Of a stretch of DNA of 18,623 nucleotides, positions 2,010-18,536 are shown piece after piece. A program made the translations under genes and the position numbers. Under the pieces are notes generated by a model. It searched no databases, was not told the DNA's origin, and saw only the letters and a program-made list of their open reading frames with translations. The number at the start of each line of letters is the position of its first letter. The stretch's first letter is position 1. Source of the DNA: Armatimonadota bacterium (GTDB taxonomy: Bacteria > Armatimonadota > Armatimonadia > Armatimonadales > Armatimonadaceae); contig JAYUUO010000021.1 of assembly GCA_043754515.1 (NCBI GenBank), positions 1 to 18,623 of the forward strand, in the 5' to 3' direction.

Positions 2010-2762
2010 ATGTTTACCGGAATAATCGAGTCGGTTGGGAAAGTAGCGGGTATCGAGCGCGGTTCCGAGTCCGCGCGTCTGACGGTAACGGCCGGCAAAA
2101 TCGCCGAGGATGTCGCCCCCGGCGATTCGGTGAGTATTAATGGCGTTTGTCTGACCGTGACAAGCATTTCGGCTCCGCGCGTGACATTCGACGCGGTATA
2201 CGAGACTCTGCGCAAATCCACGCTCGGCGATCTGGGCACGGGCGATCCCGTGAATATGGAACGCGCGGTGCCGGTCGGCGGGCGGCTCGGCGGGCACGTC
2301 GTACAGGGACACGTAGACGGCACGGGGCGCGTCGCGTCCATCCGCCCTATAGGCAACTCCTGGTTTGTGTACATTGACGCCGCGCCCGAACTGATGCGCT
2401 ACATCGTGACCAAAGGCTCTGTGGCTGTGAACGGCATTTCGCTCACGGTGGCCGAGTCCGAGGACCGAACGTTCGCGCTTTCGATTATCCCGTTCACCTG
2501 GGAAAACACCACGTTGCACAACTTGCGTGCCGGGGACACTGTGAATATCGAGACCGATATTCTCGGCAAATATGTCGAGAAGATGCTCGGCGGCTACGGC
2601 GGGAACAGTGCCGCGTCACCGACCGATCCCTATTCGGAGCGCACCGGGCGCGAGCGGAGCGGCAACAACGTCTCGATGGATCTGCTCACCCGCAGCGGCT
2701 ACGTCACCGCGACCGCGACGGACGAGTCGCGCTACGGGGGGTATGGCTCCGAACGGGAGTGA
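2010..2762 (+). CDS. ribE: Riboflavin synthase (alpha chain)
   Basis: N-terminal MFTGII, plus GDSVSINGVCLTV, GGHVVQGHVDG, KGSVAVNGISLTV and VNIETDILGKYV. Confidence 0.97.
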   Translation: MFTGIIESVGKVAGIERGSESARLTVTAGKIAEDVAPGDSVSINGVCLTVTSISAPRVTFDAVYETLRKSTLGDLGTGDPVNMERAVPVGGRLGGHVVQGHVDGTGRVASIRPIGNSWFVYIDAAPELMRYIVTKGSVAVNGISLTVAESEDRTFALSIIPFTWENTTLHNLRAGDTVNIETDILGKYVEKMLGGYGGNSAASPTDPYSERTGRERSGNNVSMDLLTRSGYVTATATDESRYGGYGSERE

Positions 2763-3349
2763 GTGACGCCGTGAATGTCGAGATGAGCACGGAACCTTAC
2801 TTCGCACACGAGGCTTTTCGCCGGGCGCGGCTTTCCGGAATGTCGCGCCGTCAGTGTCTGTTCTTCACGGCATGGTGTTGCGATCGGCTCTGGGTTGACC
2901 TCGACGAACCGTATCTGGCCTTGATTGGGGCGGAACGCGCGGCGATCTTCCGGGACGCGTATAGGGATCTGTGGGACGGCTTGATGACGAGTCTGCCGAT
3001 CCCAGCGGAGCGATTCGGTGCTCTTCCTCCGATCCTTGAGGGCCTGGCCGATGAGCACGGGAGCTACAGCATCGCACTCGACAGCAGTGAGCAAGAGTCA
3101 ACGTTTTCCTGCTACTACCATCTTATGCGGTGCGCGGCGGATGTGACGGATCAGGGTGCCTTCCACGCTGGTGCTGTACTCGCTGAGTTGGCTGACTTTC
3201 ATTGCAACGGCGACATGACCTCCGTCCTATTTCGTGACGAGGTGCGACGTCAAAGGGACATGATCGAGTGGCTGTCGTCTCATGCCACATTTGACGCGGC
3301 CAGTCGGTTCCTATACCGGGAAGATTCCCCATTTTGGAGAAACCAGTAG
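2759..3349 (+). CDS. Hypothetical helical protein, DUF416/YjaG-like (tentative)
   Basis: 196-aa ORF with a GTGA overlap with the ribE stop. LSGMSRRQCLFFTAWCCDRLW and the C-terminal FRDEVRRQRDMIEWL resemble DUF416-like proteins. Confidence 0.55.
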   Translation: MSDAVNVEMSTEPYFAHEAFRRARLSGMSRRQCLFFTAWCCDRLWVDLDEPYLALIGAERAAIFRDAYRDLWDGLMTSLPIPAERFGALPPILEGLADEHGSYSIALDSSEQESTFSCYYHLMRCAADVTDQGAFHAGAVLAELADFHCNGDMTSVLFRDEVRRQRDMIEWLSSHATFDAASRFLYREDSPFWRNQ

Positions 3350-3449
3350 CAGTTCGTGATCGAAACTACGCCACGTAATCTCGTCCTGTAAGCGGCCTTG
3401 CAATTATGGTAGACGGGATCTGGAAGTTCTCTGACGTTCCATAACGCTG

Positions 3450-3610
3450 ATTTTGACAGTAGGATTTATGTGACGACTCCGCCAGATAAATCAGGCGGCT
3501 TCTGGTGCGAGGCGAACCTCACAGCAGAGAACGGAACGTTCTGTCCGCGTCTTCTCACGCGGCGCACAGAGCCACCTCTTACGTTAGCGCGTAACGGCTC
3601 CGTCCGAGCC
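3450..3610 (-). ncRNA. TnpB omega-RNA (reRNA)-like scaffold (about 3610-3470) plus flank-derived guide (about 3469-3450, AUAAAUCCUACUGUCAAAAU)
   Basis: GGCUCGGACGGAGCC hairpin, then CGCUAACGUA, then AGAAG plus the terminal hairpin and GAGUCGUCAC. This is the layout I recognise from IS605 tnpB 3' ends. Guide length and 5' boundary are inferred. Confidence 0.75.
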
Positions 3611-3984
3611 ATGATTTCGCCGAGGCGAACCCAGATGTTTAGAAAAAAACCCGTGTCTGTTGTCTCAATCGCATGGCAGAACCGCCTGAATCCGCGACGT
3701 AACTAACACTTTCATCATCGGGGCAGAGCGGCTCGCTTCACCTAAAATCGAGGAAATTTTACGCCGCTAAACAGCCTGTTGGCTTTCTTATTGACGACCT
3801 TATCGTACACCGAGAAAGGATGGAAGGCAAGGAGAAACGGCGCGGTAGACGCGCCTGAAGTCGCGCTTCGCGCGACGCGGCTCAGAGAAATCGTTCATGC
3901 GATTTTCTTGTATTCCACAAGACCGCAGCGGTTTGTGTGATTTCCCTGCCACCTAAAGGAGACACTCCCCTTGTCGCATTTATT
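3470..3984 (-). mobile_element. Non-autonomous IS200/IS605-family element (PATE-like, 515 bp, no intact tnpA or tnpB)
   Basis: The minus strand reads CCAT | AATAAATGCGACAAGGGGAG-TGTCTCCTTTAGGTGGCA ... GAAG-CCGCCTGATTTATCTGGCGG-AGTCGTCAC |. The left hairpin (3947-3964) and right hairpin (3479-3498) both have a TTTA loop and a T-T mismatch at the same position. Removing 3470-3984 restores AGGA-TTTAT-ATG in front of the Uma2 gene. Confidence 0.88.
3802..3830 (-). promoter_or_regulatory. Sigma70-type promoter inside the element, pointing toward the omega-RNA
   Basis: TTGCCT (3830-3825), 17-bp spacer, TACGAT (3807-3802). Predicted start at G3795 (GUCAAUAAGAAAGCC...). Confidence 0.65.
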
Positions 3985-4676
3985 ATGGCTACAGCGACTC
4001 TCGAAAAACATTCCGAAACGCAGACCGCGCTCCCGCCGTCGTTTTCGCACACGCCGTCCTTTATGACTTTTGAGCAGTTTCTCAGTTGGGCGAGTGAGGA
4101 CACTCCGCCGAATGGGTAGACGGAAGGGTTATATTTTTGTCCGCATCAAATCGGCATCAGCTTATCGTATCGTTCCTTCTATCGCTCTTCCGCTTGTGGA
4201 TAGACACACAAGAGGTGGGCGGTTAGGTGACGACGGCACCGTTCGTGATGCGTTGCCGCGTCGGGACACCGGGCCGCGAGCCGGATATCTTGCATCTGCG
4301 GGAAGAGAACTTCGGGCGACTGCGTGAGAACTACCTGGATGGTCCCGCCGACCTCGCCGTCGAGATCGTCAGCCCAGAGAGCGTGCGGCGTGACCGCATC
4401 GCGAAGTTCACGGAGTATGAGGCGGGCGGCGTGGGCGAGTACTGGATAATAAACCCCGCCGATCGCACCGCCGAGTTCTACGTCCGCGACTTCGGCTCGT
4501 CCTCCTCCCGCCGGGCACCTGTCGAGGGACTGACCGAGGAGAGCGGCGGCGTTTACACGTGCGCGATGCTGGGCGGTCTGGTCGTGAACGTCGCCTGGCT
4601 CTTTGCTACCTCGCTCCCGTCGCTGGCTCCGATCGTGCGCGCGTGGCAAGCCGTCCCCGAACCTAACACTCCCTGA
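3985..4676 (+). pseudogene. Uma2/DUF820 family PD-(D/E)xK endonuclease, disrupted
   Basis: MATATLEK...MTFEQFLSWASEDT, then a frameshift at about 4105 into AEWVDGRVIF..SNRHQ.., then an in-frame TAG at 4224-4226, then REPDIL..GPADLAVEIVSPES..RDRIAKF.EY..GVGEYWIINP. It is also separated from its RBS by the inserted element. Confidence 0.9.
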
Positions 4677-16733: not shown

Positions 16734-17384
16734 GTGATGAGAGACGATGAGCCACGCTCGCAAGGGCCCTTCGGCAACGAAGAAGTAGTGGTATCGTGCG
16801 CCCCGCGCTGCAGGGCTCAAAAGGGGCATGATCGGGCACGTCACCAGCGACAATGGGATGTTGTCTTGACGCAGGCGCGGCGAGTAGCACATGATGGTGC
16901 TTTACGGGATGGCTTGTCGCCCTCTGACTCCGACGACGTAGCTTCACTCTTCGTCCTCTGCTTCCTGCGACGTGGAACGGGCTGGGGGAACGACGGGAAC
17001 ACGAATGCCCCCGACCAAGACGCCGATCCACGGTACCTGCTACCCTTGTTTCTGCGTTGCCAAATCAGCCGCTTACGCGCCCACATCCAGCGCGAAGTGA
17101 CTTGCCTCAATGCGGATGCCAATCTTTCGGACGTTTCATGCGCTTCATCGGTTCAGCAATGTGATAGGACCGTCGAACAGCGAGCCCTGTGGGGGGCGGT
17201 TGCCGAAGCGGTAAAAAATCTTCCGTCACTCCAACAGGACGCTCTAGTCGGGCGCGTTCTTAACGATGAGCCGATTTCGGAGATCGCCGCGCGGCATAAC
17301 GTGGGTGAAGCCGCCGTTCGGAAATCCTCGTACCGCGCCCAGATCACTCTGAGAGTCAGGCTTCGTGACTGGGAGGAAAAATAA
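16734..17384 (+). CDS. Divergent ECF-type sigma-70 family factor
   Basis: AGGAGGT RBS at 16721-16727. Region-4-like AVKNLPSLQQDAL...EPISEIAARHNVGEAAVRKSSYRA and a weak region-2-like DSDDVASLFVL. Confidence 0.72.
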   Translation: MMRDDEPRSQGPFGNEEVVVSCAPRCRAQKGHDRARHQRQWDVVLTQARRVAHDGALRDGLSPSDSDDVASLFVLCFLRRGTGWGNDGNTNAPDQDADPRYLLPLFLRCQISRLRAHIQREVTCLNADANLSDVSCASSVQQCDRTVEQRALWGAVAEAVKNLPSLQQDALVGRVLNDEPISEIAARHNVGEAAVRKSSYRAQITLRVRLRDWEEK

Positions 17385-17495
17385 GTCAAAAATCTTCCGA
17401 CTTCTGTGTCCTATTTACGCGACTGGCTGAACTTATAAAGTGAGGGATTGCGGTGGATTGCTACTCCGCGACTGCGTACCAACAGGGAACACTGG

Positions 17496-18536
17496 ATGAA
17501 TCAGAAAATTAACTCCAACCTCATATCTCTCGTTATAGTGATCGCGTGTATCTCTGTCGGTACCGTCGCGGCTCGGGTGGCCTACCGGCTTGTGACGCAT
17601 GCGCAAGACGTTCCCATCACTGTGTATCCGAAGTCGATCTGGTTCAACAGGCTGGTTGAAGGTGTCGTCGGCGAGGAAACAGTGTATTTGACTAACAGGG
17701 GTGACGCTCCTTTGCAAGCAGATCGGATCGTTTCCTCATGCGGTTGTACAACAACGGAGGGGCCGAAGGTTATCTCACCGCTCGGTCAGGGGAAATTTGT
17801 CGTCCACTATGACTCGCACGACCGACGTGGCAAGATAAACCAATCGGTGAGCGTGTACTTTTCAGGACACCGAGATCATCCGGTCTCAGTTCCTGTGGCT
17901 GGTAATGTTGAACGCGATATCGAGTTGAATTCGCCATTCGTTTCCCTGGCAAATGGCGCGGGAGAAATAACCATGAAGCGTCTTGATGGGGAGCCATTGC
18001 GGCTGACCGTGGTATCAACACCGGATTCCATCAAAGTTGTGTTACAGGAGTTGTCACCGGAATCTGTCCGGGTCAGGTTCACGACGACGCTACAGGCGAC
18101 TGCGGGAACGCACCAAGAGGACGTGGTCATCGGGATAAATCATCCGGGGTTACCACAAGTAACCATTCCAGTGTCGTGGACATCCGCTGGGAAGTATAAA
18201 CTCGTACCGGATACTTTAAACTTCGGCTTGGTGCCTTTCGGAGCAGAGAAACAAGGCGCAGTGCGCATCACTGGCCCATCCGTCAGTGGGTTGCGCTTAA
18301 TCTCTTTGCCACCCAGTTTTACAGGCAAAATCAACGCCGATGGGCCAAACACTGCGGCCTTGAATGTGCGCTGGTCTGGGAAAGGGGGGAAACGACTGAT
18401 ACACGCGAACGTAACATTGTCCACGGGTGATGTAACGGAGCCGCGTCTTGTGATACCTGTCTACGCTGCCGTTAACTATACTGCGGCAGATGGTGGTTGC
18501 ACGGCTAAATTGCCTTGTAAATCCGCCGATAACTGA
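17496..18536 (+). CDS. DUF1573 domain-containing (Ig-like) membrane-anchored or secreted protein
   Basis: N-terminal hydrophobic helix, LTNRGDAPL...SSCGCT...ISPLGQG motif, then further Ig-like repeats (PDTLNFG). Confidence 0.85.
   Translation: MNQKINSNLISLVIVIACISVGTVAARVAYRLVTHAQDVPITVYPKSIWFNRLVEGVVGEETVYLTNRGDAPLQADRIVSSCGCTTTEGPKVISPLGQGKFVVHYDSHDRRGKINQSVSVYFSGHRDHPVSVPVAGNVERDIELNSPFVSLANGAGEITMKRLDGEPLRLTVVSTPDSIKVVLQELSPESVRVRFTTTLQATAGTHQEDVVIGINHPGLPQVTIPVSWTSAGKYKLVPDTLNFGLVPFGAEKQGAVRITGPSVSGLRLISLPPSFTGKINADGPNTAALNVRWSGKGGKRLIHANVTLSTGDVTEPRLVIPVYAAVNYTAADGGCTAKLPCKSADN

Follow-up and report, generated by a model that had tools for sequence, protein, structure and literature searches.

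The minus strand of an Armatimonadota contig carries a 515-nt element (positions 3984→3470) that holds no protein gene and is best explained, with good probability, as a non-autonomous PATE or standalone omega-RNA element of mosaic make-up, inserted by a TnpA acting in trans and carrying the scaffold of a CCAT-type TnpB, in a copy that would be old and probably without a working guide. This explanation draws on the anatomy, boundaries, homology, covariation, and decay of the element.

RESULTS AND DISCUSSION

Setting and anatomy of the element

The window, i.e., the whole stretch of DNA that was analyzed (18,623 nt), is the entire contig JAYUUO010000021.1 of the source assembly (contig C21 of G000 in our analysis). 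The element lies between an ORF without known family (2759-3349), which follows the riboflavin genes, and a Uma2-family gene (PF05685) that starts at 3985, and its GC content is 0.54 compared to 0.62 for the whole window. The ORF (196 aa, plus strand, no Pfam match) stands between the riboflavin-synthase gene and the element and is missing from the syntenic locus in the same-genus genome G002. Elsewhere in the window, 16734-18536 (plus strand) encodes a sigma-70 region 4 protein and, after it, a DUF1573 Ig-like protein. Judged from sequence comparison, the element is a protein-free member of IS200/IS605 whose ends were correctly delimited. Its parts run in the order CCAT and left end, promoter slot, TnpB omega-RNA scaffold (3610-3470), and right end closing with TCAC, as listed here.

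3985..3988, minus strand: TAM and left cleavage motif CCAT, outside the element (ATGG, the Uma2 start, on the plus strand); five other left ends are homologous up to this point
3940..3984, minus strand: left end with guide tetramer GGGA (3969-3966) and TnpA-type hairpin (3964-3947), homologous to L019 and G000:C283
3880..3939, minus strand: small hairpins, ~60 nt, missing from autonomous relatives, where L019, L020, and L028 join the left end straight to 3879
3800..3879, minus strand: palindromic stretch and promoter region common to the autonomous family (56/81 nt identical to L019)
3672..3790, minus strand: conserved, structured 5' module (model R1), 73-77% identical to L014, L021, and L032
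3611..3671, minus strand: variable linker, with 3655-3611 common to L012
3470..3610, minus strand: predicted TnpB omega-RNA scaffold, by alignment with the 3' ends of tnpB-bearing elements, covariation, and a model score of 63.6 bits
3470..3502, minus strand: right end with guide tetramer GAAG (3502-3499), hairpin (3498-3479), and cleavage motif TCAC (3473-3470)
3450..3469, minus strand: putative guide, derived from the flank
3985..4676, plus strand: Uma2-family (PF05685) pseudogene, separated from its ribosome-binding site by the insertion

End hairpins, tetramers, and promoter

The original prediction described two minus-strand hairpins of one geometry, TGTC-T-CC-TTTA-GG-T-GGCA at 3964-3947 and CCGCC-T-GA-TTTA-TC-T-GGCGG at 3498-3479, and both were found in place. 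This bulged-TTTA geometry, a pattern chosen post hoc, occurs five times in the 5.13-Mb assembly, with two of the occurrences within the element and an expectation of 0.0005 per 515 nt. Folded alone, the right hairpin is modest (z -2.0), and the left one is not the minimum-energy fold (z -0.4). CCAT (3988-3985), TCAC (3473-3470), GGGA (3969-3966), and GAAG (3502-3499) also stand where they had been claimed and match the IS608 pairing pattern. The IS608 rule includes pairing at the fourth guide position. With TAM anchors set by eye and five offsets permitted, 20 of 21 left ends obey an IS608-type tetramer rule, and the guide tetramer covaries with the TAM (CCAT-GGGA, TCAT-GARA, and TGAC-CAAG). 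Small palindromes are inserted in the TTTA loops of the end hairpins, and in the interior, of four elements (L058, L060, L083, and L112).

The proposed promoter, TTGCCT-17-TACGAT, is present (-35 at 3830-3825, -10 at 3807-3802) but weak, agreeing at 8/12 positions and unlisted by a consensus scan; the corresponding slot of homologues holds stronger promoters (TTGACT-17-TATAAT in L066 and TTGCTT-17-TATAAT in L049). The noted lack of tnpA and tnpB holds as well: the best tblastn match obtained with 12 TnpB-like and 6 TnpA-like ORFs had an E value of 0.008 and lay on the opposite strand, and searches of the genome with the Pfam TnpA and TnpB profiles gave no match on this contig. A reading of the interior as a TnpB remnant ("FPRF" and "LNIW" in one frame) was rejected, as tblastn gave nothing significant and the stops are not conserved, and a small plus-strand peptide was dropped since its frame is not conserved.

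Boundaries and the Uma2 target site

Homology to other elements, in differing flanks, ends exactly at both predicted positions. The left end (3940..3984) is identical at 42/45 nt to L019, a same-genus tnpA-tnpB element, and at 40/45 nt to G000:C283, while at the right end conservation stops at TCAC in 20/20 alignment rows and 33/36 nt are identical to L012. The motif CCAT is the reverse complement of ATGG in Uma2, and the Uma2 start codon was the insertion target. Removal of the element in silico restores AGGA, 5 nt, and the ATG of Uma2, i.e., a natural ribosome-binding site, which supports both boundaries independently.

It is hardly credible that this DNA is a domesticated host RNA gene or the normal 5' region of Uma2. 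The element is fixed at the site in the four runs examined, as such a gene would be, but the syntenic Uma2 homologue in G002, which lies ~15 nt after the riboflavin-synthase gene (84% identical) in a rearranged locus, is without it, and this locus largely refutes the reading. Moreover, its relatives sit in unrelated flanks, and Uma2 here is a pseudogene, with a frameshift near 4105 in the source strain and an in-frame stop at 4224-4226 for which the run covering it lists no variant.

Related elements

Further copies were expected in the source genome, and neither the DNA search nor the omega-RNA model returned any. The only significant DNA match in that genome is C283 (88% over 3940-3988), a 1122-nt tnpB-only element that begins after CCAT, ends in GTTGTCAC, and has a broken tnpB with stops in all frames. 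Eight of the 41 genomes searched, G000 included, match the element region. In G002, the same left end heads an intact 157-aa tnpA and then tnpB (L019 and L023) or tnpB alone (L028), with homology ending at CCAT in all three. Also as predicted, a complete tnpA+tnpB element with related ends exists: L044 (1732 nt) shares TAM, end motif TCAC, and omega-RNA type with the window element. Used as a DNA query, L044 revealed no close CCAT-family autonomous element in G000 and short matches in 4 of 32 family genomes.

A pattern built from the 3' part of the element retrieved 28 genome loci and 4 viral loci, of which 5 have tnpB upstream, 3 have less than 300 nt of upstream DNA, 1 is a chance match, and 23 have no tnpB match in upstream DNA checked up to 1.6 kb; the pattern derives from protein-free elements, which biases the tnpB-free ratio, six loci duplicate DNA already in the set, and two viral loci are identical. 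The taxa include Armatimonas, Capsulimonadales, Dehalococcoidia, Ardenticatenaceae, Chloroploca, Rubrobacteraceae, and Actinoallomurus. Protein-free elements with both bounds measure 199 to 515 nt, and the family is multicopy in other genomes. L033 and L048 are chance matches.

Several relatives differ in their interiors or ends. L026 (1501-1870, plus strand) shares the CCAT left end, behind which an ORF with what we take to be a LAGLIDADG-like motif stands in place of tnpA/tnpB. L018 (1066-1550, minus strand; 485 nt) is protein-free and combines a window-type left end with another interior and a CAAG/TGAC right end. L012 (1501-1710, minus strand) has the omega-RNA and right end nearest to those of the window and begins after CCAT, with no left-end hairpin seen. 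L066 (2442-2640, minus strand, viral contig) is a minimal element of 199 nt consisting of left end, near-perfect promoter, and an 89-nt omega-RNA.

The omega-RNA scaffold

The scaffold comprises a hairpin (3610-3596), a stem (3594-3555), a ~55-nt insertion (3550-3505), and the right-end hairpin, with a pseudoknot between GACG (3604-3601) and CGTC (3475-3472). Its start was set at the 3610 hairpin because the promoter of L066 directly precedes the equivalent hairpin. It aligns with the 3' ends of the tnpB-bearing elements L040, L044, L047, L054, L028, and L001. When 20 rows were aligned, six tnpB-bearing ends among them, pairing was 100% in both the first hairpin and the pseudoknot and 99% in the long stem, although the rows are non-independent kin and the hairpin is partly fixed by the search pattern, so that its conservation is partly built in; the overall figure of 88% pairing is lowered by four innermost pairs named out of register. 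Five of the 6 long-stem pairs change on both sides, and 0/500 shuffles reach the omega-RNA helix score. Scored with a model from which it had been left out, the window reaches 63.6 bits; 15 other full matches rank higher (75-109 bits, some of them nearly copying training rows) and one ranks lower (52.4). In G000, only C283 and the window match.

For the putative guide (3450..3469), no CCAT-plus-guide target of 8 nt or more was found elsewhere in the assembly. Within 3463-3492, the guide is complementary over its first 7 bases to the loop region of the right-end hairpin, and the target resembles the first bases of the left end, both probably by chance. A viral contig (L069:2441-2660, minus strand) holds two tandem omega-RNA scaffolds with differing guides behind one tnpB.

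Mosaic origin and 5' RNA modules

By its sequence identities, the element is a mosaic, its left part coming from the autonomous family and its module and omega-RNA from a protein-free family; both this origin and the conserved 5' module had been missed in the original prediction. Positions 3880-3800 and the left end match the same-genus autonomous L019 (56/81 and 42/45 nt), whereas the module (3790-3672) matches the protein-free L014 (81/119) and L021 (79/119) and at most 13/119 of same-genus tnpB elements. Similarly, the omega-RNA matches L012 at 51/60 nt and same-genus tnpB elements at no more than 16/60. Run X5 contains a high-depth contig with the same skip of ~60 nt (3880..3939) as the autonomous relatives.

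These identities bear on the reading that a tnpA-tnpB element simply lost its middle by deletion, in which case the interior would be only decayed coding sequence. The left 185 nt do resemble L019, and published PATE-like remnants retain a tnpB tail (PMC7290912), but the element has no tnpA/tnpB similarity, its module and omega-RNA find their matches in protein-free elements from other genera rather than in same-genus tnpB elements, and the module displays compensatory changes; we therefore regard such a deletion as very improbable and keep to a mosaic element.

The R1 module is a long irregular hairpin of ~120 nt between promoter and omega-RNA that is common to three other protein-free elements. 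Across the 4 sequences, 95% of cells pair and 4/16 named pairs change on both sides, scores that 7-25 of 500 shuffles also reach (for pair types, 119 of 500 do), and the compensatory changes are thus only suggestive. The R1 model found no genome beyond its training set (3/71 in the class and 0/151 in another phylum, searched with no positive control), and two metagenome matches to the module pattern were discarded as chance hits inside unrelated coding DNA.

In other protein-free relatives, the same slot is occupied by a second motif, R2, which consists of GGUU, a 7-bp hairpin, and GUAAAA within a longer hairpin. All 7 of its pairs covary in 10 sequences (92.5% paired vs 52%), the motif having been selected with a pairing filter. 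Its model gave 59 matches in the 5 genomes that supplied training rows (up to 24 per genome), 3 new matches among 151 genomes of the phylum, and no match on the window or its three closest relatives. None of 33 R2 loci lies beside tnpA/tnpB; a right-end pattern occurs in 23 and a left-end pattern (a loose expression) in 18, and several omega-RNA types are found downstream. The R2 loci, which have no Rfam match, are as follows.

L039, L045, L049, L050, L053, L061, L062, L065, L068, L074-L076, and L083-L112

With Rfam 15, nothing reached gathering score on the window, and nothing fell over the element modules at E values up to 5 (8 loci) or 10 (11 loci). A putative link between R1 and R2 by circular permutation (GUAAAA/G in both) was considered by eye; the register differs. 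Presumed likenesses of the modules to hammerhead, twister, pistol, hatchet, RNase P, and raiA were weighed and dropped.

We tentatively consider that protein-free IS200/IS605 elements might be more than deletion remnants, namely RNA genes under their own selection, with dedicated 5' RNA domains (R1 and R2) that would serve TnpB capture, processing, or stabilization in trans, or 5' self-processing, a possibility we rate well short of even.

Decay, helpers, and activity of the window copy

By analogy with published systems for mobilization, transcription, TnpB loading, and cutting, a Y1 TnpA would act in trans to paste the element 3' of CCAT, parting Uma2 from its ribosome-binding site. The helper would most likely come from the same-genus L019/L023 family, of which G000:C283 is a broken, tnpB-only member. 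The promoter is placed to yield one RNA of ~330 nt plus a flank-derived guide, with the structured 5' module ahead of the scaffold. A CCAT-type TnpB would then load the scaffold in trans and cleave the unoccupied site, so that the filled allele would have to serve for repair.

The original prediction was of an RNA-only parasite that borrows TnpA to move and TnpB to guard its site. Comparative evidence supports its identity, boundaries, TAM CCAT, omega-RNA, and need for TnpA and TnpB in trans. Present activity is another matter, as the copy is single, no intact cognate helper was found, its omega-RNA is degraded, and neither an empty site nor a circle junction was seen in assembled contigs of 4 runs. 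With neither these traces of movement nor a second copy detected, the mobility of the window copy is putative.

The signs of decay lie in the omega-RNA. An AACG/CGTT helix keeps 2/4 pairs in the window copy vs 4/4 in 16 and 3/4 in 3 of 19 relatives, and its inner two pairs have a predicted probability of 0.0 compared to at least 0.8 in 19/19 relatives. The canonical stems of the window copy are likewise predicted at 0.0, displaced by perfect local hairpins, by folding programs that disregard pseudoknots and bound protein. At 3550 and 3562, the window differs from 19/19 relatives, whereas sister strains X5 and X8 keep the family base; these strains depart at the invariant position 3555, so both lineages drift, and their alleles also fold poorly (0.0-0.3). 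The window alleles make a perfect hairpin at 3562-3545, as would be expected from template-switch mutation of quasi-palindromes.

Contigs from three other studies (X5, X6, and X8), mostly 95-99% alike, have the element at the same site, and X8 bridges both the right (3281-3942) and left (3948-4119) junctions. No joint skipping the element was found in contigs of 4 runs (of 20 listed), from which assembly drops rare variants. Of 4 Y1 matches in G000, all partial, only the C244 fragment resembles an IS605-type TnpA, and among 5 TnpB-domain matches a full frame occurs only in C123 (L006). The latter (G000:C123:6430-7720), the sole full-length TnpB of the assembly, has a TCAT left flank and a TGAC right end, and its ends and omega-RNA belong to another family than those of the window; pieces related to the L006 TnpB lie at four contig ends. 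Intact cognate tnpA and tnpB are present in the same-genus G002.

Could the element nonetheless still be active, as a transcribed RNA-only parasite that loads on a TnpB the assembly lacks and guards its site? The ends, tetramers, first hairpin, and pseudoknot are intact, the element is kept at its site in the sister strains, and the assembly is incomplete. Against this, the only intact TnpB found goes with other ends and another omega-RNA, the C283 tnpB has stops in all frames, IS605-type tnpA survives only as a fragment, the run that may be the source contains just one other left-end contig, and the omega-RNA helix is broken. We judge this unlikely. The window copy may still be active, the assembly being 92.7% complete and the ends and pseudoknot intact, but it is probably an inactive, old, and stranded copy that is not a working guide any more.

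Comparison with known systems

Measured against the criteria for PATEs, the element has subterminal imperfect hairpins homologous to an autonomous element, fixed-tetramer insertion without target duplication, no tnpA/tnpB coding, and a TnpB-type scaffold with a pseudoknot abutting the right end. As for helpers encoded in the same genome, a further criterion, no cognate TnpA or TnpB in intact form was found in the 92.7% complete assembly, where TnpB pieces lie at contig ends.

Group I introns require a terminal G. The window element ends in C, and no Rfam match to a group I intron core was found between the ends at gathering score or at E values up to 5, both of which set it apart from IStrons. 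The likeness to IStron PATEs lies in IS605-type ends, the lack of an ORF, and a structured RNA inside (10.1101/2023.11.20.567912).

IS608 ends have subterminal hairpins with guide tetramers (AAAG/TTAC and GAAT/TCAA), the first two guide bases pairing crosswise (PMC5934647), and in the ISDra2 omega-RNA a 5' loop forms a pseudoknot with the bases that immediately precede the guide (PMC10097598). The window ends are hairpins with tetramers of the IS608 type, and the window pseudoknot is of the ISDra2 loop-to-3'-end type (PMC5934647 and PMC10097598). However, IS608 and ISDra2 encode TnpA and TnpB and the window element neither, and the 5' 115 nt of the ISDra2 omega-RNA are a dispensable coding overlap, whereas the 5' part here is non-coding (PMC10097598).

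Standalone omega-RNAs are mobilized without effector or transposase and work in trans, and their role is stated to be unknown (Altae-Tran et al., PMC10691335). The window element likewise contains neither effector nor transposase, but published standalone omega-RNAs have an effector-bearing locus in the same genome (PMC10691335), and none intact was found in G000. The 5' domains offer a direct handle on that role and may serve as guide-stabilizing parts. The element points to unnamed structured 5' domains confined to protein-free elements and to a CCAT-TAM TnpB family whose 89-nt minimal scaffold is defined by the natural 199-nt L066. Among the titles and abstract openings listed for PATEs, standalone omega-RNAs, and TAMs, none describes such a 5' domain.

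Meers et al. describe minimal ORF-less PATE-like elements in which an omega-RNA, acted on in trans, is often encoded (PMC10055086). Those of Geobacillus stearothermophilus resemble the window element in having no ORF, both ends, an omega-RNA, and a need for TnpA and TnpB in trans, and covarying guide and cleavage motifs are common to both families (PMC10055086). The window element differs in its TAM CCAT and end TCAC, the 55-nt scaffold insertion, its mosaic origin, and the conserved ~120-nt 5' module, a module of this sort not being described for the G. stearothermophilus elements in the accessible text (PMC10055086). The original prediction overrated the element in that its kind is already published (PMC10055086 and PMC10691335): the concept of an ORF-less omega-RNA element is known from PATEs and standalone omega-RNAs, and what merits testing is the unexplained 5' RNA domain.
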